This document shows positions 12,067 through 45,462 of a stretch of DNA of 64,000 bases, one piece after another; within the stretch, counting starts at the first letter, position 1, and the number at the start of each line of letters is the position of its first letter. The notes under the pieces are model-generated. The model was given only the letters and a program-made list of their open reading frames with translations. It made no database searches and was not told where the DNA came from. The stretch is from positions 33,941 to 97,940 of the forward strand of contig CALWTS010000004.1 of the NCBI GenBank assembly GCA_944384535.1, in the 5' to 3' direction. The position numbers were made by a program, and so were the translations under genes. This stretch comes from an uncultured Clostridia bacterium. Lineage in GTDB: Bacteria > Bacillota > Clostridia > Christensenellales > UBA1242.

Positions 12067-12412
12067 AAAATCCTAAAGAAATCAATAAAGCTTTATTTAC
12101 CTCTCTCATTTTTTCTGCTGATAGGACAGTTATCTTTTCCTGCAGACGTCGCTTATCTAAAGTTCTAATCTGTTCCAATAAAGCAACTGAGTTTTTGGGT
12201 AAATTATATTGTTCCGCTGGTAATTCAATATGAGTAGGAAGCTTTGCTTTACCTAATTGACTTGTTATAGCAGAAACTATTACAGTAGGAGAATATTTGT
12301 TTCCAATGTCATTTTGAAGAATAAGTACAGGACGAACGCCACCCTGTTCACTTCCTACAACAGGGCTAAGGTCAGCATAATAAATTTCTCCTCTTTTTAT
12401 TTGATTGTCCAT
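12065..12412 (-). CDS. mazF: MazF/EndoA (PemK family) mRNA interferase toxin
   Basis: Near-collinear with Bacillus EndoA: [57 protein letters not shown]...[13 protein letters not shown]. Confidence 0.95.
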
Positions 12413-12629
12413 TTGATTCCTTATTCCAAAAATCTATTAAGTCGGCTTTTTCAAGGTCTGATAATTGATCATAAATTTTACTTAAATCAACATCTTCCCT
12501 CATTAGCATAATATGCTCATCATTTGAAAAATTTTCATTCAAAACGTAAGAAATATAATCTCCATAAAATTTTTCTACATTTTTCACTTTAGTCCACAAT
12601 TCTTTTGCATATTTGTTTTTTCTAATCAC
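12372..12629 (-). CDS. putative MazF-associated antitoxin (not recognisably RHH/MazE-like)
   Basis: 85-aa ORF directly upstream of mazF and overlapping it by 41 nt. GTG start lies 7 nt after AAAGGAG. The acidic C-terminal half ([15 protein letters not shown]) is followed by a basic tail. Called by position only. Confidence 0.5.
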
Positions 12630-12688
12630 AATTATTCTCCTTTAACTATTGTTTTAAACATAGTTTGTTAAATACTAAAATTATTATT

Positions 12689-12713
12689 CTAAAAAAGGAG
12701 GACAACCCTCCTT
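12689..12713 (-). terminator. rho-independent terminator after acpS
   Basis: Minus strand reads AAGGAGG-gttgt-CCTCCTT followed by T's, immediately after the acpS stop. Confidence 0.65.
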
Positions 12714-15720: not shown

Positions 15721-16389
15721 ATGAGTTGTCCAATGAATATAAAAGGTTTCGGCCCATCTCCTATTCCTGAAGAGGCAAAATGGGTACAATTAAAAGATAT
15801 AACACAAGTATCTGGTTTTTCACATGGATGTGGTAAATGTGCACCACAACAAGGGACATGTAAACTTACTTTAAATGTTAAAAATGGTATAATTAAAGAA
15901 GCTCTTGTTGAAACAATAGGTTGCTCAGGTATGACACATTCTGCAGCAATGGCAGCAGAAATTTTACCTGGAAAAACTTTATTAGAAGCATTAAATACCG
16001 ATCTTGTATGTGATGCAATAAACGATGCAATGAAAAACATCTTCTTGCAACTTGTGTATGGAAGAAGTCAATCTGCTTTTTCAGAAGGCGGTCTTGCCGT
16101 TGGTTCTGCACTCGAAGATCTTGGAAAAACTTTAACAAGCAATGTTGGAACTGTTTATTCTCAGGATGGTAATGGAACAAGGTATTTAAATTTAGCTGAA
16201 GGATATATTACTAAAGAAGGACTAGATGAAAATGGTGAAATTATTGGATATGAATACGTCGCTATTGGAGCTCTAATGAAATCTTTAAGAGAAGGCATGG
16301 ATAGTAAAGAAGCTATACAAAAAGCTACTAAAACATATGGAAGATTTAAAGAAGCTACTACAATAATTGATCCAAGGAGGGCTGAATAA
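15721..16389 (+). CDS. NifU/IscU-like iron-sulfur scaffold-type protein (long form)
   Basis: Cys-containing motifs at the three IscU ligand positions (HGCGKCAP; IGCSGMTHSAAMAAE; LVCDAINDAM). RBS ggagg upstream. Its stop overlaps the start of the next gene (TAATG). Confidence 0.7.
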   Translation: MSCPMNIKGFGPSPIPEEAKWVQLKDITQVSGFSHGCGKCAPQQGTCKLTLNVKNGIIKEALVETIGCSGMTHSAAMAAEILPGKTLLEALNTDLVCDAINDAMKNIFLQLVYGRSQSAFSEGGLAVGSALEDLGKTLTSNVGTVYSQDGNGTRYLNLAEGYITKEGLDENGEIIGYEYVAIGALMKSLREGMDSKEAIQKATKTYGRFKEATTIIDPRRAE

Positions 16390-17372
16390 TGGATTTAACT
16401 GTTAAACAAACATCAATTGATGAAACTTTAGCAAAATATAATATAAAAGATGTTGAACAAGCTAAACAAATTTGTTTAGAAGCTAATATTAACGTTGAGG
16501 AAATCGTTAAAGGTATTCAACCTATTTGTTTTGATAATGCTGTTAAAGCTTATGAATTAGGTGTCGCAATAGCTATTAAAACTAATACCAAAAAAGCAAC
16601 AGAAGTTGCTTTAAAACTAGGAGAAGGATTACAAGCTTATTGTGTAAAAGGTTCTGTTGCTGATGAAAGGCAAATTGGTTTAGGTCATGGAAGACTCGCA
16701 AGTATGCTTCTTGATGAAAAAACAAAAAGTTTTTGCTTTCTTGCTGGACATGAAAGTTTTGCTGCAGCTGAAGGTGCAATAGGAATTGTTACATCTGCAA
16801 ACAAAGTTAGAAAAACACCTTTAAATGTCATTTTGAATGGACTTGGAAAAGATGCAGCATATATAATTTCAAGAATTAATGGATTTACTTTTGTAAATAC
16901 TTCATATGACCATAAGACTGGAAAATTAACAATCTTAAATGAAAAATCATTCTCAAATTCAGAAAGAAGTAAAGTTAAAGTTTATGGCTCTTATGATGTA
17001 CCGGAAGGTGTTGCAATAATGAAACACGAAAAAGTTGATGTTTCTATTACTGGTAACTCGACAAATCCTACACGTTTTCAACACCCTGTTGCTGGAATTT
17101 ATAAAAAGTGGTGTTTTGAAAATGGACATAACTATTTTTCAGTTGCTTCTGGCGGAGGTACTGGAAGAACACTTCATCCTGATAATATGGGTTGCGGACC
17201 TGCAAGTTATGGACTTACAGATACTATGGGAAGAATGCATTGCGATGCACAATTTGCTGGTTCATCATCAGTTCCTGCACATGTTGAAATGATGGGCTTT
17301 ATTGGAATGGGAAATAATCCTATAGTTGGAGCTACTGTTGCATTAGCTGTTGCAGTCGAAACAAGAAAATAA
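16389..17372 (+). CDS. GGGtGRT family protein (function unknown)
   Basis: Contains the family signature ASGGGTGRTLHPD. 327 aa, matching the family length. Translationally coupled to the NifU-like gene. Confidence 0.8.
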   Translation: MDLTVKQTSIDETLAKYNIKDVEQAKQICLEANINVEEIVKGIQPICFDNAVKAYELGVAIAIKTNTKKATEVALKLGEGLQAYCVKGSVADERQIGLGHGRLASMLLDEKTKSFCFLAGHESFAAAEGAIGIVTSANKVRKTPLNVILNGLGKDAAYIISRINGFTFVNTSYDHKTGKLTILNEKSFSNSERSKVKVYGSYDVPEGVAIMKHEKVDVSITGNSTNPTRFQHPVAGIYKKWCFENGHNYFSVASGGGTGRTLHPDNMGCGPASYGLTDTMGRMHCDAQFAGSSSVPAHVEMMGFIGMGNNPIVGATVALAVAVETRK

Positions 17373-17434: not shown

Positions 17435-18094
17435 ATGATTAAAATAAGAAAAAGTTGGTTTGAAATTTTAAATGATGAATTTAATAAGGAATATTTTAAA
17501 AAATTACAAAGTTTTCTCAAAAATGAATATAAAAGTTATGAAATTTATCCATCAGAAGACAAAATATTTAATTCATTAAACCATGTTCCTTTGGATAAAA
17601 TTAAAGTAGTAATAATAGGTCAAGATCCTTACCATGAACCTGGGCAAGCTCAAGGATTATCATTTTCTGTTCCAGAAAATGTTGATATTCCCCCATCTCT
17701 TGTTAATATCATGCAAGAAATAGAAAACGATTTAAATATTAAATGTGAAAAAAATGGAAATCTAGAAAGATGGGCTAATCAAGGAGTATTATTATTAAAC
17801 ACAGTTCTAACCGTTCGAAAAGGTCAAGCAAACTCTCATAAAGAAAAAGGATGGGAAATATTAACAAAAAAAATTATAGAAATAATTGGAAAAAGAGAAA
17901 AACCTGTCGTATTCATGTTATGGGGTTCTTATGCACAAAAATATAGTGATTTGATTGCTCCTCAACACCTTATACTTAAAGCACCGCATCCTAGTCCATT
18001 ATCTGCTTATAGAGGATTTTTTGGATGCAAACATTTTTCAAAATGTAATGACTTTTTGATAAAAAATGGAGAAACTCCTATAGATTGGAAATAA
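17435..18094 (+). CDS. ung: uracil-DNA glycosylase
   Basis: GQDPYH water-activating loop, HPSPLS motif, 219 aa. Confidence 0.95.
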   Translation: MIKIRKSWFEILNDEFNKEYFKKLQSFLKNEYKSYEIYPSEDKIFNSLNHVPLDKIKVVIIGQDPYHEPGQAQGLSFSVPENVDIPPSLVNIMQEIENDLNIKCEKNGNLERWANQGVLLLNTVLTVRKGQANSHKEKGWEILTKKIIEIIGKREKPVVFMLWGSYAQKYSDLIAPQHLILKAPHPSPLSAYRGFFGCKHFSKCNDFLIKNGETPIDWK

Positions 18095-18121
18095 AAAAAA
18101 GACATTTTGTCTTTTTTTTTA
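18093..18121. terminator. bidirectional terminator between ung and PHFHF cassette 1
   Basis: A-run, AAAGAC-atttt-GTCTTT, T-run. Confidence 0.75.
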
Positions 18122-18502
18122 TTTGTTTTCAGTTTCAGCAAAAACTTTATCTGCATATATCTCAACTTTTATAAAATCTTGAATTTGCTTTAATAAATCC
18201 ATTCCTGAATCTATTTCTAGTTCTAATTTATCAAAAAATTCTACATTATATTTTGTAGCGAACTTTTCTATTAATTTAATAGGATTAAGGTTTTTAACTT
18301 CATCATCTCCAACCCAATTTTCAAACAAAAAGTAATCATCTGTCATAAAAACTTTATCTTCTTCTTGATAGAAAATAACAAAAATCAAAGCATTTAATGA
18401 TTGATACTTTATTAATGTTGTAAGTTTGAAATAATCCCCATTATCTTCTACAACTCCTATTTTAAAACTTTCAACCTTTTTTCTTAATAAATCTATATTC
18501 AT
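18119..18502 (-). CDS. small acidic protein, member B of cassette 1 (family shared with 18499-18852 and 35455-35853)
   Basis: 127 aa; 26 D/E versus 16 K/R by hand count. ATGA start/stop overlap with the upstream gene. Shared landmarks: ...EEDKVFMTDD..., LIEKFATKYNVEFFD, DFIKVEIYAD. Confidence 0.7.
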   Translation of the reverse strand: MNIDLLRKKVESFKIGVVEDNGDYFKLTTLIKYQSLNALIFVIFYQEEDKVFMTDDYFLFENWVGDDEVKNLNPIKLIEKFATKYNVEFFDKLELEIDSGMDLLKQIQDFIKVEIYADKVFAETENK

Positions 18503-18852
18503 TTTTTCTCTCCATTTTGCATTAAGTCCGCATATATCATTATTGAAACAAAATTTTGTACATCATAATAAATTTTGTTAAGAGAAGCTTTTGTATAACA
18601 ATAATTTTCTTCGTTAATAAAAATGTTGTTATCTTTCAAAAATTTTATTAAATCAGCACTAAAAAAACCACATCCTTTTTTTATGGATTTTAAATCTGAC
18701 AAAAATATTTCATCCTCTATTATTTCTAAACAAACTTTTAACTGCTCCTTATCATTAATTAAATAAGGCCATTTAATAATAATTTTATTGTCTTGTTGTG
18801 TAAAATCAATATTAAAATTAGTTAAAATGTTTATAAGTTCTTTAAAGTTCAT
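18499..18852 (-). CDS. small protein, member A of cassette 1 (same family)
   Basis: 117 aa. Starts 20 nt after the stop of the large gene and ends in TGA inside an ATGA overlap. Landmarks: IIEDEIFLSD, LIKFLKDNNIFINEE, NFVSIMIYAD. Confidence 0.7.
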   Translation of the reverse strand: MNFKELINILTNFNIDFTQQDNKIIIKWPYLINDKEQLKVCLEIIEDEIFLSDLKSIKKGCGFFSADLIKFLKDNNIFINEENYCYTKASLNKIYYDVQNFVSIMIYADLMQNGEKK

Positions 18853-18872
18853 TAAATCACTCCTTTTTAACT

Positions 18873-20000
18873 CTAATCACTTTCGTTTTCATCTGAGTTT
18901 TTATCTAGTTTGCTCTCTTCAGAAATATTTTCAATATCATCTCTATCAATAATAATTAAAGCTATTTCATATAATTTTTCAGAAAAATTCTTTTGTTCCC
19001 AATCTTTTCTATCAATTTGAATATTATTTAACTTTAAACAATTCTTATCATCTTTTTTAAAAATTTTTTCAATTTTATTTATCTTTTCTCTAGCCGATAA
19101 TAATATAACTTTAATTAAATATGTAAATATGCCATTTTTAATTTGTGCTCCGCTATCTAACAAAATATGTAATTTATTAAAATCATTATCATCTTTTATA
19201 TTTTTTAAAATATCTTTTATTTTTAATTTTAAACTTTTGTTTAAATCATCTTTAGACATAGAATCGATATTTTTAGAAAGCTTATAGTCAAGAAATGGTA
19301 ATCCAATTGAATATTGATTTAAAATATTTCCTTTTTCCGCTGTAATTAAATCTTTTAAATACATTATCAAATTATCAACATTTATTGCTAAACAATCTTG
19401 ATAATCAGGATTATTAAAATGAAAATGAGGAGGTGTAACAATGATACCATAATATTTTTTAAATAATGCAAGTTCATCATCACTTTTATTTAAACAATCT
19501 AAACTATTTTGGTGCATATATTGAGAGTTTACATCAAATCTTTCTAATTGTATAAGTTTTTGAGGATCAGAAGTTGGCATAACAACTGTAAAATAACTCA
19601 TATTTTTTTCTATTACGGGTCTTCTACTTTCATCTTTATCAGTAAAATGAGCAGTAATTAATAAAACGTTCCCATCTACTCTATAAAAACTAACTATGCT
19701 ATCTTTTAATATATTTACAATTACTTTTTTTCTTTTTCCTTTTTCTCTGACTTTTTTTCTTAATAAAATACTACCATGTTGAGTATCAAAACAAGTTTCT
19801 CTCTCTCCTAAAAGATAATCTGAAATTTGCTCTCCATCAGATAACCTTAACGAATTTATATCATTCCAACGTGTTCTATTTATATAAGGTTTATTAGTTG
19901 TATCATTTTTATTATAATCCAAAAAAGCTACAACTTTCTCATCGGTCGAACTACCATCTTTATTTATTATATCTGTTGCTTGAGTAATCTTATCTTTCAT
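18873..20000 (-). CDS. unassigned PHFHF-motif protein (cassette 1 large subunit)
   Basis: The ATG at 20000 follows GAGAGGTG. The 22 extra codons in the track ORF run through the promoter and terminator. No TM, signal peptide or Walker motif. Shares a conserved core with 35819-37258 (DPxK, R[FY]D, HxN, PHFHFxN, G[LM]PFL[DE]YK). Confidence 0.75.
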   Translation of the reverse strand: MKDKITQATDIINKDGSSTDEKVVAFLDYNKNDTTNKPYINRTRWNDINSLRLSDGEQISDYLLGERETCFDTQHGSILLRKKVREKGKRKKVIVNILKDSIVSFYRVDGNVLLITAHFTDKDESRRPVIEKNMSYFTVVMPTSDPQKLIQLERFDVNSQYMHQNSLDCLNKSDDELALFKKYYGIIVTPPHFHFNNPDYQDCLAINVDNLIMYLKDLITAEKGNILNQYSIGLPFLDYKLSKNIDSMSKDDLNKSLKLKIKDILKNIKDDNDFNKLHILLDSGAQIKNGIFTYLIKVILLSAREKINKIEKIFKKDDKNCLKLNNIQIDRKDWEQKNFSEKLYEIALIIIDRDDIENISEESKLDKNSDENESD

Positions 20001-20016
20001 AACACCTCTCACATAG

Positions 20017-20045
20017 ATTATACACAAAAAATAATTAAAAATCAA
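20017..20045 (-). promoter_or_regulatory. sigma-A-type promoter of cassette 1
   Basis: Minus strand: TTGATT (20040-20045), 17-nt spacer, TATAAT (20017-20022), 16 nt before the ATG. Confidence 0.5.
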
Positions 20046-20052
20046 TAACTCT

Positions 20053-20081
20053 AAAAAAAAGATCACAACAAAGTTGTGATC
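20053..20081 (-). terminator. rho-independent terminator after the Glu-rich protein gene
   Basis: Minus strand: GATCACAAC-ttt-GTTGTGATC followed by TTTTTTTT. Confidence 0.8.
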
Positions 20082-20150: not shown

Positions 20151-21266
20151 TTATTCTGCATTAGTACTATCTGTTGCACTATCATCTGAAGTTGATTTTA
20201 ATTCTTCAATAGCTTCTTGAAGTTTTTTAATGTTATTTTTGATTTCAGCATTTCTTGATGATAACAAGTTAAATATTTGTTCTAATAATGGATATCTTTG
20301 TTCATTTTTGCTCATTACTTCTTCGCAATGTTGAACAGAAAGTTTTAAACCATCTAATAAATCTAAATCTTCAGCAAGCTTCTTTGCTTTTTCTTCATCA
20401 ATATCGGCATAGTTATTAACACCATAAAGAACAACTTTTTGTTTTGCAACTAAAGCTTCTTTTCTACGAAGTTTCTTTTCATCATTTTCAAGAGTTCTCT
20501 TAACTCTTCTTAAAGGTAAGAACTCTTTTTTGCATTGACGAAGTTCTTTTTCATTAACTTTAAGCTTAGCCTGTTCATCAGCAAGTTTTGCTTCAATTTC
20601 TTCTAAAGTCATTGTTGCTGCTAATCCCTGTTCCCCTTCACCAGCAGCAATAGCATTTTCGAATTTAGCTTCTGTAATATCAGGAACAACAGGTTGTTCA
20701 GGTTCTTCCTTAACTTCCTCTTCCTCTTCCTCTTTTTCCTCTTTTTCCTCTTTTTCCTCTTCTTCTTGAGAAACATCTACAGCATTATTTTCTTCTTTTT
20801 CTTCTTCCTCTTCTTGTTGCATTCTCGCAAGTCTTTCCATCAATTCTTGTCTACGTTGTCTAATATATTCGGAAGCTTCATCTTGATCATCTTCCTCTTC
20901 TTCTTCCTCTTCTTCTTGTTCTTGTACAGGTTCTTCCTTAACTTCTTCTTTAACTTCTTCTTTTTCTTCTTCTTGTTCTTCATTTACTTCTTCAACTTTC
21001 TTTTCTTCATCAGGATTATAGTTTTCTACTACAGCACCATTATAAAGAATAGTTGTAGAATTCTCTTTGCCTTGACTATTTTCAAGAGCTTTAACTCTTG
21101 ATTCTAACTCTTTTTGTTTCTTTAGTTGTGCATTTTTGATAGCTTCGTCATCTTTAGCTTTGTTAGAGATGCTCATTAATAAATCACCAACAAAATATAG
21201 AAGAAATCCTCCTGCAACGATGATACCAAGAACAACAACAATTGTAACAATTACTGAACTTGACAT
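20151..21266 (-). CDS. membrane-anchored Glu/Lys-rich coiled-coil protein (low complexity)
   Basis: N-terminal TM segment (VIVTIVVVLGIIVAGGFLLYFVG). Long poly-E/EK tracts (EQEEEEEEEEDDQDE; EEEEKEEKEEKEEEEEEVKEE). C-terminal heptad-like helical region. RBS AAGGAGTG. Confidence 0.7.
   Translation of the reverse strand: MSSSVIVTIVVVLGIIVAGGFLLYFVGDLLMSISNKAKDDEAIKNAQLKKQKELESRVKALENSQGKENSTTILYNGAVVENYNPDEEKKVEEVNEEQEEEKEEVKEEVKEEPVQEQEEEEEEEEDDQDEASEYIRQRRQELMERLARMQQEEEEEKEENNAVDVSQEEEEKEEKEEKEEEEEEVKEEPEQPVVPDITEAKFENAIAAGEGEQGLAATMTLEEIEAKLADEQAKLKVNEKELRQCKKEFLPLRRVKRTLENDEKKLRRKEALVAKQKVVLYGVNNYADIDEEKAKKLAEDLDLLDGLKLSVQHCEEVMSKNEQRYPLLEQIFNLLSSRNAEIKNNIKKLQEAIEELKSTSDDSATDSTNAE
20715..20767 (-). 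repeat. imperfect tandem 6-9-bp GAA/GAG-rich repeats encoding the poly-Glu tract
   Basis: Plus strand reads ttcctcttcctcttcctctttttcctctttttcctctttttcctcttcttc. Confidence 0.7.
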
Positions 21267-21315: not shown

Positions 21316-21710
21316 TGGTGGAGACGGTGGGAATTGAACCCACTTCCGAAAAACTTGTGCAAAACTTTTCTACATGTTTAGTTTATGTTTTAATCTTACT
21401 ATTAAACGAATCATAAACAATTTTTTAATAGCCAGTCTTTCAAATTATGCAATCACTATAAAGACTAATTTGTGAATGTAGAGCGCTTATTCTGAACCCT
21501 AAGAGTAATCTAGCGAAATTACAATGGGTTTGGTTAAAACTTTTAACCGATTTTTTTTGTTTACTAAGCAGCGTAAGCTAAGCTTGCATTGCCCATAGAA
21601 ACAACTTTGTTTTCGTTTGCGTTTATTTGCAAATGTCCTTGTTTAGGTGTAGACTCACCACATGCTTTATGTTTTGATCAATGTTCCCCGTCGAAACCAT
21701 TAACGCCCCC
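21316..21710 (-). ncRNA. ssrA: tmRNA (ssrA)
   Basis: Minus strand 5' GGGGGCGTTAATGGTTTCGACGGGGAAC... and 3' ...GTGGGTTCAATTCCCACCGTCTCCACCA. Acceptor pairing includes G3:U. Internal tag frame: GCA AAC GAA AAC AAA GTT GTT TCT ATG GGC AAT GCA AGC TTA GCT TAC GCT GCT TAG TAA. Lies directly downstream of smpB. Confidence 0.9.
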
Positions 21711-35430: not shown

Positions 35431-35459
35431 AAAAATAAAATAGAGAAAGCATCTCTATT
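35431..35459 (-). terminator. rho-independent terminator of PHFHF cassette 2
   Basis: Minus strand: AATAGAGA-tgctt-TCTCTATT followed by TTATTTTT. Overlaps the stop of the small gene. Confidence 0.65.
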
Positions 35460-35853
35460 CTACATTTCCATTAATCATCTCAAACAATAACAACGCTCTA
35501 ATAAATTTATTATAATCTATTATTATTTCATCAGGATTTATTTTTATTAAAAATCTATTGTCCTCAAACTCAATATTATTTTCTTTAATAAACCTATTAA
35601 AGAATTTATTTTCAAATTCTCCAAAATGTTCGTTAATTACAGAGTTGAAAACATCACCATAATCACAAAAATAAAATTCTTCATTAACTGAAATTAAATA
35701 AATTTTTAAAACATCAAAATTATTTAGCAACATTAGATTTGTGTTAATTATGTATTTTTCTTCATTTACTTTCTTTATATTTATAGAACCTATATAATCA
35801 CTTAATTTTATAACAAGTTCATTTATTTTCATTTTCATCTCCAAACTTTTCAT
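35455..35853 (-). CDS. small protein of cassette 2 (same family as 18119-18502 and 18499-18852)
   Basis: Landmarks: LISVNEEFYFCDYGD, FIKENNIEFEDNRF, KFIRALLLFEMI. The likely true start is the ATG at 35832, 6 nt after GGAG. That gives a 14-nt overlap with the large gene instead of 35 nt. Confidence 0.7.
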   Translation of the reverse strand: MKSLEMKMKINELVIKLSDYIGSINIKKVNEEKYIINTNLMLLNNFDVLKIYLISVNEEFYFCDYGDVFNSVINEHFGEFENKFFNRFIKENNIEFEDNRFLIKINPDEIIIDYNKFIRALLLFEMINGNVE

Positions 35854-37258
35854 TATTCTTTGTTAAACGATGAGAGTCTATCTCAAATGTTGTTTTTTTC
35901 AACTTTTGATTTTCATTTGATGTGTTTTTACAAATACCATCAACTAGATTATTTGCCAATAAAACTTCTAAATTAGATAAAATCTCTTTATAATCCAAAT
36001 CTTGGCTGTTATTTGAATTATATATTTCATCATGAATAAATTGTAAAAAATCTAAAATTTTAATAAATTGAGCAAAAAAAGTATACTTTTTTGATGAATT
36101 TGGAACATTTTGTTTTAATGAATTAAAACGATTAATTAATTTATCAAACATTTCAAGATTTTCTTTATTTAAACCATTTCTATACTTTTCAAGTATATCA
36201 TTAAAGTTTAATGTCATTGATTTGTTAAATACTTTATATTCCAAAAACGGCATACCATAGTCCAATCCATTATCAAAATCTCTTTTTAATTCTTCATAAC
36301 TTTTATTATCTAGGTTTATTAAATATCTTTTTAAATGAGGAATATCAATTGCGTTGCATCTTCCCGTCTTATATTTAGTTCTTCTATCTTTACCTATAAA
36401 TTTCTTTACACATAGCAAATTATCATCTTCATTTTGAAAATGAAAATGAGGATTTTGTGCTATGGCACCAAAAACATCTTGTCTTTTATCATTCCCAATA
36501 TATAAATTATTATGGTCATGTGTTGCACTATCATATCTAAAGTACGGCATTGCTTTATTAGGATCCCCATCTAATATGCAATACATACAAATAGACAAAC
36601 TTCTTTGGTACGCAACATTATCAAGATAAATTTTATCATCGTTTGTTAAAACTTTTTTTCTCGCTTTAACTATTTTCATACTAGCTGGCTGATATCTCAA
36701 ATCAACGACTTTTGAATATATATTTCTTTGAGATTTTGATAAATAAAATTTTGTATCATTGAATATTATATCTTTGCTTTCTTTTGCCTTTAATTCATCA
36801 ACATATGTATTTTTAAAAAGATAAAGAGGAGAATTATAATCGTAATATTTTTGTAATATTGGAAATTTAGAATCAGAAAGTAATGTTAAAAAATCATGTT
36901 TTTTTAATATAAAAGGAACATATCTCCAACGTTTTTCTAAAAATTCATCAACAGAAAAATCTTTTAAAACTTTTTCTGCGATATCTTTGATATAAATATT
37001 ATTTTTATCAGCATTTTGGAAATGTCTTAAAACATCTAAATATATATATTGTTTTATTATTTGTTTTGCTTCTTCCTCGCTTTTTCCTTTTTCCATAAGT
37101 TGTAATATCAATTTAACTGTGGCTTCTTTACCACTTGTAAATAAAAATGTTTGCACATATTCAAAAACATCTTCATCAATTTTATTTAAAGAAAAATTAT
37201 AAGATTTTGCTTTTTTCTTTGTTAAAGAATTTCTATTTTTAAAATCTTTTGTGTACAT
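35819..37258 (-). CDS. unassigned PHFHF-motif protein (cassette 2 large subunit)
   Basis: The ATG at 37258 follows GGGAG. 479 aa. The core ...DGDPNKAMPYFRYDSATHDHNN...GAIAQNPHFHFQNEDD...NAIDIPHLKRYLINL...YGMPFLEYKV is homologous to 18873-20000. It has an extra N-terminal region of about 200 aa. Confidence 0.75.
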   Translation of the reverse strand: MYTKDFKNRNSLTKKKAKSYNFSLNKIDEDVFEYVQTFLFTSGKEATVKLILQLMEKGKSEEEAKQIIKQYIYLDVLRHFQNADKNNIYIKDIAEKVLKDFSVDEFLEKRWRYVPFILKKHDFLTLLSDSKFPILQKYYDYNSPLYLFKNTYVDELKAKESKDIIFNDTKFYLSKSQRNIYSKVVDLRYQPASMKIVKARKKVLTNDDKIYLDNVAYQRSLSICMYCILDGDPNKAMPYFRYDSATHDHNNLYIGNDKRQDVFGAIAQNPHFHFQNEDDNLLCVKKFIGKDRRTKYKTGRCNAIDIPHLKRYLINLDNKSYEELKRDFDNGLDYGMPFLEYKVFNKSMTLNFNDILEKYRNGLNKENLEMFDKLINRFNSLKQNVPNSSKKYTFFAQFIKILDFLQFIHDEIYNSNNSQDLDYKEILSNLEVLLANNLVDGICKNTSNENQKLKKTTFEIDSHRLTKNNEKFGDENENK

Positions 37259-45189: not shown

Positions 45190-45462
45190 TGTGCTGAGCT
45201 AGACGGAGAGTTAGCGGTGCTCTGTAGCCCACAATCCGCTATAGTGGGGTTGAATGCTTATAGCGATTTAAATTTTGTAAATATGTGTATGTAAATTTGG
45301 TGATGAAATCAAGGTCTTATGCAATCAAAATCTTTGAATCATGTCAGGGCCTGACGGCAGCATCATTAAGAGGACACTTTGGTGTGCCATGAGGAAGCTT
45401 TGGTGGAGCTAGATTTGTGTAAGGCAGTTATGGAATTTTTATCAATATAAGATGCTCAGCAT
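45190..45462 (+). ncRNA. ffs: signal recognition particle RNA, long Bacillus-type (Alu + S domains)
   Basis: The terminal helix pairs GTGCTGAGC (45191-45199) with GCTCAGCAT (45453-45461). The S-domain helix-8 motif GTCAGGGCCTGACGGCAGCATC matches the conserved GUCAGGUCCGGAAGGAAGCAGC pattern. About 270 nt, followed by a terminator. Confidence 0.85.

Follow-up and report, generated by a model that had tools for sequence, protein, structure and literature searches.

A lineage-restricted three-gene module of uncultured gut Clostridia joins a structurally unplaced protein to DUF1828-like partners

Within a 64,000-nucleotide (nt) stretch of DNA from an uncultured Clostridia bacterium (GenBank assembly GCA_944384535.1, contig CALWTS010000004.1, positions 33,941 to 97,940; hereafter the window, in whose coordinates all features are given), we describe a minus-strand cassette of three genes that lies between ung and a gene for a glutamate-rich (Glu-rich) protein. 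This cassette is an accessory operon of a lineage-restricted family of modules and is the second, patchily distributed copy of that family, the other being the locus of a 479-amino-acid (aa) paralogue. Its large protein, of 375 aa, is predicted to be soluble and to contain a core of ~110 residues with fixed Arg, Asp, His-x-Asn and His-Phe-His positions and a Tyr in the next helix, and this core is probably a remote, much enlarged relative of DUF6978 and of PDC-M24A, one component of a candidate defence system. Profile comparison identifies the small partners as DUF1828-like proteins that stand alone and are related to PDC-M24B over its N-terminal half. We tentatively read the cassette as a module for conflict or defence with a metal-dependent enzyme at its centre and with the DUF1828 proteins as bound regulators or sensors. 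What is new is an enlarged version of an uncharacterized candidate family: the genes are real, conserved and structurally unplaced, and the function that we assign to them is inferential.

Results

Three tightly packed genes form an accessory cassette

The 375-aa gene (18873-20000, minus strand, with its ATG at 20000 and its stop codon at 18873-18875) encodes an N-terminal beta-rich region, the conserved core and a C-terminal helical region. After a 20-nt gap, which contains the Shine-Dalgarno sequence AAAAGGAG, comes the gene for a 117-aa protein (partner A, 18499-18852, minus strand, isoelectric point (pI) 4.9), which runs by an ATGA overlap into the gene for a 127-aa protein (partner B, 18119-18502, minus strand, pI 4.5). 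The open reading frames (ORFs) are as an earlier, sequence-only reading of this DNA had described them. The cassette is intact in three samples, namely the window and two more at 99.7% nucleotide identity; the one to three substitutions per gene within the species are too few for an estimate of selection.

Because the cassette is absent at the same site in a related genome (L127), where rnr, smpB, (ssrA) and the Glu-rich gene are followed by 87 nt and then ung, we regard it as accessory. Elsewhere (L134/L135), the same site holds a 354-aa large homologue at 31% identity, beside an SmpB with 81% identity and a Glu-rich protein with 59%. A metagenome scan with SmpB found no close relatives (best identity, 57%) and so was of no help for this indel analysis.

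The linkage of large and small genes, on which the sequence-only reading had built its functional proposals, recurs both at another genomic site and in distant branches. At a site unrelated to that in the window, L131-133 carry a cassette of 386, 118 and 130 aa with ATGA-type overlaps; the 118-aa protein of L131 is 34% identical to the 117-aa protein (E 1e-15) and occupies the same gene position, and its 130-aa third-gene product is 35% identical to the 127-aa protein (E 7e-29). Farther away, the large proteins P0105 (383 aa) and P0118 (323 aa) have overlapping genes for DUF1828-like partners of 119 and 116 aa, respectively, both matching the small-protein profile at E ~1e-10. The P0100 large gene stands alone, with its conserved residues intact and no small partner.

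The large proteins share a core of nearly fixed residues

No Pfam, NCBIfam, PHROGs or PADLOC model reaches threshold for the 375-aa or the 479-aa protein. They are related to each other (BLASTP E 2e-7, 25% identity over 165 aa) through the segments by which their common core had first been noticed. Whereas a word-indexed search of 5.8 billion proteins returned only near-identical relatives of the 375-aa protein, the 479-aa protein has 54 homologous clusters, none carrying a Pfam domain. An exhaustive HMMER search with the family profile, which the 375-aa protein also matches, delineated a superfamily of 81 representative clusters (at 50% identity), the distant ones matching over the central core only. 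All superfamily members that could be located come from low-GC uncultured gut Clostridia.

We scored conservation in alignments of 42 and 106 sequences, with ~14% mean column identity, using the numbering of the 375-aa protein. The conserved core spans residues ~130-240 (coding region 19281-19613, minus strand) and contains R154, D156, H163, N165, P191-H-F-H-F195, A205-I206, L211, Y214, L218 and G233-x-P235-F236. N165, H194, Y214 and P235 are invariant in both alignments; R154, D156, H163, P191, H192, F193, F195, A205, I206, L211, L218 and F236 are at least 90% conserved in them, as is G233 in the 42-sequence set. Among the four motifs that the sequence-only reading had proposed as a metal-binding or catalytic centre, R-[FY]-D, H-x-N and P-H-F-H-F hold at 90% or more across the 106 homologues, but D-P-x-K is not conserved beyond the 479-aa subfamily. 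Two features had escaped it: the invariant Tyr and the overlapping 132-aa partner of the 479-aa paralogue.

At 31-32% identity to P0103 and P0111 and ~20% to the 479-type proteins, the 375-aa protein is assigned on sequence to a separate, ancient subfamily. As had been noted, it has no transmembrane (TM) segment, its maximum 19-residue Kyte-Doolittle window being 1.16. Among the sequences of the Protein Data Bank (PDB), the 375-aa protein by itself and the profiles A1, A2 and A3 found chance-level matches only. A supposed resemblance of PPHFH to DUF4160 was unsupported by Pfam scans of isolated cores.

The small partners are DUF1828-like

The clearest view of the small proteins comes from the 479-aa paralogue, whose 3' end is overlapped by 35 nt by a gene for a 132-aa stand-alone DUF1828 protein (35455-35853, minus strand). 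This protein passes the Pfam DUF1828 model (PF08861; E 2.2e-6, 28.3 bits against a gathering cut-off of 22) and matches the PADLOC model PDC-M24B (E 8e-5) over positions 4-120 of 255. DUF1828 is matched by 19 of 20 orthologous partners (E <= 0.1, best 1e-12), and PDC-M24B by 16 of 20, in its N-terminal half (best E 1.4e-10). DUF1828 is often fused N-terminally to DUF1829, whereas the proteins here, ~115-130 aa long, stand alone and lack DUF1829.

The two cassette proteins are more divergent members of this group. Neither the 117-aa nor the 127-aa protein directly matches the Pfam DUF1828 or the PDC-M24B model; a profile built from the 20 partners ranks them second and third, respectively, among the ORFs of the window (hmmsearch E 3e-5 and 0.033), and in hhalign comparisons with the same profile the 117-aa protein aligns over 107 columns at E 4e-5, while the 127-aa protein reaches E 0.008. 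Partner A is a divergent DUF1828-like protein and partner B a weakly DUF1828-like one. They had been described as two small, related, acidic partners; acidic they are, with pI 4.5-4.9, but BLASTP finds no similarity between them, and they are related only through their common weak match to the DUF1828-like profile. Scans against Pfam, NCBIfam, PHROGs and PADLOC found no DNA-binding domain, toxin family or antitoxin family in the small proteins.

Together the two proteins make up 244 aa, near the 255 positions of the PDC-M24B profile, which comprises DUF1828 plus DUF1829, and the two genes might represent a split PDC-M24B-like protein; the 127-aa protein has no DUF1829 match at E <= 1.

A probable remote relationship to PDC-M24

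PDC systems are multi-gene candidates whose prediction comes from 'guilt-by-embedding', their occurrence within BREX, DISARM or type I restriction-modification (RM) loci (Payne et al., bioRxiv 10.1101/2024.01.29.577857). The B-side matches of the small partners are complemented by a match on the A side: among 106 large proteins, one (P0111, a homologue of the 375-aa protein from the same site) matches PDC-M24A, at E 0.0015. This match maps to P0111 residues 126-198, that is, to the RYD..HxN..PHFHF..AI..Y core, and to profile positions 66-122 of 146. The isolated P0111 core also matches Pfam DUF6978 (PF22398) at E 0.006, aligning to 57-120 of its 133 positions; the score, 17.3 bits, falls short of the gathering cut-off of 29.6. 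Neither large protein of the window matches PDC-M24A at E <= 1, nine other isolated cores, both window cores included, have no DUF6978 match, and DUF6978 is not among the 25 families listed from full-length scans of 51 superfamily members.

Taken alone, the A-side match is at the level of noise. About 14 families were weakly matched among 5,027 models, however, and by our own estimate the chance that one of them would be the cognate partner of the family matched by the small genes is ~0.3%; for this reason we consider remote homology of the large proteins to PDC-M24 probable.

The resemblance to PDC-M24 lies in the two-component layout, with small partners that resemble B and a P0111 core that resembles A. 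The differences are several. The large proteins here have 350-500 aa, as against an A profile of 146 positions, with extra N-terminal beta-rich and C-terminal helical regions; the small partners cover positions 4-120 of the 255 of B and lack the DUF1829 half; the window cassette has two small genes; and neither window locus is embedded in or beside a BREX, DISARM or RM system. DUF1829 was recently implicated in the validated defence system DS-6B/HipAD (PMC13092281), and a preprint assigns to DUF6978 an alpha/beta fold and a putative metal site formed by His. A search of the literature on DUF1828 and DUF6978 found nothing functional.

The predicted fold has no recognisable solved analogue

AlphaFold models the 479-aa protein with a predicted local distance difference test score (pLDDT) of 88 and a predicted template modelling score (pTM) of 0.89, and the 375-aa protein with a pLDDT of 72 and a pTM of 0.73, its core residues 130-240 reaching pLDDT 84-95. 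Each model places HFH in a short beta-strand and the invariant Tyr (Y214 of the 375-aa protein) in the helix that follows. At E <= 0.001, Foldseek found no PDB match for either model and no match for the 479-aa model in BFVD. Since nothing in the PDB was matched, the modelled fold of the large protein is one without a recognisable solved analogue, and the impression that the protein could not be placed in any family has held for curated families at threshold. The HIT family was considered and dropped because its representative, DcpS, appeared at Foldseek rank 28 with a probability of only 0.03.

The 479-aa paralogue is vertically inherited and fast evolving

The gene for the 479-aa paralogue (35819-37258, minus strand) lies ~16 kb from the cassette, belongs to the same superfamily and is the copy passed on by vertical descent. 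Scanning one genome per species gave 38 loci, equivalent to ~35 distinct species-level genomes after duplicate contigs were set aside, all of them in metagenome-assembled genomes of uncultured Clostridia or Firmicutes, several from animal guts. In most of these loci the 479-type gene is downstream of pepF, often past a variable insert, with an ATP-binding cassette (ABC) transporter operon and/or glmM downstream, and in most syntenic loci a small DUF1828 orthologue follows, its gene overlapping or abutting that of the large protein. Some 14 of the ~35 syntenic loci have no small partner; in these the large gene is intact with all conserved residues.

Across loci, identity to the window proteins is 55-87% for flanking proteins, 27-52% for the large protein and 28-41% for the small one, and mean p-distances are 0.60 for large and 0.67 for small proteins as against 0.24-0.26 for the adjacent ABC ATPases. 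Because large-gene distances track those of the ABC genes (r 0.90), we conclude that the 479-type gene has descended vertically; by synteny and by this distance correlation, it is not mobile and has been inherited at a fixed position. Large and small distances correlate at r 0.85, with a partial r of 0.59 when the adjacent ABC genes are controlled for (permutation p 0.0005).

In the most divergent 479-type subclade (L005, L045 and L046, 27-28% identical), the pair of large and DUF1828 genes is beside tyrS and a BLIP-domain gene. As this pair is not beside pepF, the 'fixed' position must have changed at least once.

The variable insert between pepF and the 479-type gene, which is absent from the window, is on the opposite strand (L001, L003, L014, L015, L024, L127 and others). 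It contains a GT4 glycosyltransferase, a 234-aa protein of the metallo-beta-lactamase (MBL) fold and sometimes a protein of 750-1000 aa without domains; the MBL-fold protein matches Pfam 'Anti-Pycsar_Apyc1' (PF23023).

Signals, edges and neighbourhood of the cassette

A promoter-like TTGATT-N17-TATAAT (20017-20045, minus strand, 10 of 12 positions matched) precedes GAGAGGTG and the ATG of the 375-aa gene. The sequence-only reading had credited the cassette with a promoter of its own; the motif is present, but in this AT-rich window such matches are no commoner than in shuffled sequence (21 versus 18.1). The homologous cassettes of L134 and L131 are preceded by a comparable TTGATTTT...TATAAT; beyond this, the cassettes compared have no common terminal hairpins or repeats.

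The cassette is bracketed by two hairpins, which had been recognised earlier and which both fold, each followed by U8, although a consensus terminator scanner listed neither. Its upstream edge is the terminator hairpin of the Glu-rich gene (20053-20081, minus strand; folding free energy -14.5 kcal/mol, z-score -4.5, then U8). At its other edge, an A/T-rich hairpin (18093-18121) stands between the convergent 127-aa gene and ung; with folding free energies of -9.7 kcal/mol on the minus strand, where U8 follows, and -10.3 kcal/mol on the plus strand, it is probably a bidirectional terminator. An exact 11-nt direct repeat, TAAAAAAAAGA, is present once at each edge (18092-18102 and 20052-20062, plus strand; 1,960 nt apart). 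It may be an insertion scar or a chance occurrence, and it is weak evidence for a scar because it is A-rich and overlaps the terminator tails; it also overlaps the ung stop codon.

Upstream of the cassette, the gene for the 371-aa Glu-rich membrane protein (20151-21266, minus strand), itself conserved, separates it from ssrA (21316-21710), so the cassette is not directly downstream of ssrA as it had been described. The Glu-rich protein has an N-terminal TM helix and a long Glu/Lys-rich low-complexity region of variable length; its C-terminal domain is 80% identical to that of a related genome, and its gene comes right after ssrA in several relatives.

The window has 27% GC, of a Firmicute-type organism, and the five genes of its two loci are among the six lowest-GC of its 59 ORFs. 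Beside ung, on the plus strand, a 222-aa gene with an ATGA-type overlap into a gene for a 327-aa GGGtGRT-family protein (PF14057) forms a pair (15721-17372) that is kept there. A canonical-looking MazEF/PemK-type pair, in which an 85-aa gene overlaps a 115-aa PemK_toxin gene (~12079-12690, minus strand; window coordinates mapped from L128 17374-17938), offers a conventional toxin-antitoxin contrast within the same window. A bacterial large signal recognition particle RNA is encoded at 45194-45459 (plus strand, 162 bits).

Discussion

We favour, at somewhat short of an even chance, the reading that the cassette is a conflict or defence-type module in which a metal-dependent enzyme acts together with DUF1828 proteins. 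Here, the large protein would use two or three His residues and an Asp as metal ligands in a predicted site, and the Tyr, Arg and Asn would work on a substrate that contains phosphate, nucleic acid or a nucleotide being the most plausible. Bound to the large protein, the DUF1828 proteins would be its regulators or sensors and not obligate antidotes, and the module as a whole would serve genetic conflict, as an anti-phage or abortive-type defence. The sequence-only reading had proposed a toxin-antitoxin, abortive-infection or effector-immunity module; the matches to PDC-M24 lend indirect support to its defence and abortive-infection variants, whereas a strict toxin-antitoxin pair has become unlikely.

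Several results pull the other way. The A-side link to PDC-M24 comes from one of 106 large proteins, below threshold, and from neither window protein directly; DUF6978 and DUF1828 are uncharacterized families, as is PDC-M24, itself only a candidate. For neither model did Foldseek return an analogue among nucleases or other enzymes. Neither locus is flanked by known defence, integrase or phage genes: their surroundings consist of ung, the Glu-rich gene, smpB/ssrA, pepF and the ABC transporter genes, with no match to a defence family. In viral contigs, phage records and plasmids, tblastn found zero homologues of the large or small proteins, even for the core at E <= 10. Finally, the 479-type copy has stayed at a single locus throughout a clade of order or family rank, behaviour that is unusual in defence genes and consistent with a housekeeping role.

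Such a role is the strongest alternative. The large protein would be a lineage-specific housekeeping enzyme, of nucleic-acid, nucleotide or envelope metabolism, for example, with DUF1828 as an optional accessory subunit and the 375-aa cassette as an extra paralogue. Besides the position next to pepF in most genomes and a divergence that tracks the neighbours, this explanation would accommodate the catalytic-looking residues that stay invariant even where the small partner has been lost, as well as the lack of mobile or defence genes nearby and of phage or plasmid homologues. It fits poorly with the rate of evolution, which is far above that of the neighbours (p-distance 0.60 versus 0.25), with the presence/absence polymorphism of the 375-type copy and its occurrence at different sites, with the confinement of located members to uncultured gut Clostridia and no detectable link to a metabolic operon, and with a partner family that matches a defence candidate. 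We think it less likely than not, although for the 479-type copy it is a serious contender.

A bolder form of the conflict-module reading, which we offer as speculation and would expect to fail, is that the PHFHF core is a new type of enzyme fold, with a metal site of His, His and Asp and with Tyr as the nucleophile; it would be an analogue of HUH nucleases, structurally unrelated to them. With DUF1828 sensors or regulators it would make up an unrecognised class of conflict system, of which DUF6978/PDC-M24 would be the minimal version, and the 479-aa copy would be a domesticated, fixed core gene in a gut Clostridia clade.

The comparison with HUH enzymes can also be taken literally: the large protein might be a domesticated or highly diverged HUH-type endonuclease (Rep, relaxase or Y1-transposase-like) in which HFH binds the metal and the Tyr is the nucleophile for the processing of single-stranded DNA. 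A His-hydrophobic-His motif with a downstream Tyr defines HUH enzymes, among them Rep proteins, relaxases and the IS200/IS605 TnpA, and the large proteins have H192-F-H194 on a beta-strand, an invariant Tyr (Y214) on a helix 20-39 residues later and a conserved upstream Asp or His that could be a third ligand. Yet no similarity of fold or profile was detected: no Rep, relaxase or TnpA structure was among the Foldseek matches listed for either model, and no Pfam HUH family was matched in scans of 51 members and of 10 isolated cores. Where the HUHuuu motif is hydrophobic, the large proteins have a short, polar strand (Q, N or S) following HFH, and the cassettes lack common element-like ends such as terminal hairpins or repeats. 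We judge a true HUH enzyme to be quite improbable.

Still less likely is a classical type II toxin-antitoxin system, with the large protein as the toxin and one or both small acidic proteins neutralising it. The compact, translationally coupled genes, the small acidic partners, the co-evolution of large and small proteins, the fast evolution and the patchy distribution of the cassette all recall such systems. A strict pair is unlikely because the large gene persists alone, motif-complete and intact, in ~14 syntenic loci and in P0100; in addition, a large protein of 350-500 aa has the wrong size for a component, the small proteins match no DNA-binding domain (helix-turn-helix or other), and no known toxin or antitoxin family is matched.

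The idea that the cassette is the cargo of an integrative element targeting the tmRNA gene, favoured by its being an indel near ssrA relative to a related genome, by the 11-nt direct repeats at both edges and by a GC content below the window average, is largely refuted: the region has no integrase or recombinase ORF and the window no att duplication, both as first observed, the ssrA 3' end (17 and 26 nt) occurs only once in the window even at 2-3 mismatches, the Glu-rich gene between ssrA and the cassette is conserved (59-80% identical in relatives), and the repeat is A-rich terminator tail sequence.

If the cassette is indeed a conflict or defence system, it would provide the first functional handle on DUF6978, DUF1828 and PDC-M24, an enzyme with a confidently predicted fold that lacks a solved analogue, and an example of a defence-type module that has become a fixed, syntenic core gene of a clade of uncultured Clostridia from human and animal guts. 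If it is a housekeeping system instead, it would represent a clade-specific enzyme of small-genome gut bacteria. Under either reading, the invariant His, Asp, Asn, Arg and Tyr residues are clear targets for mutation.

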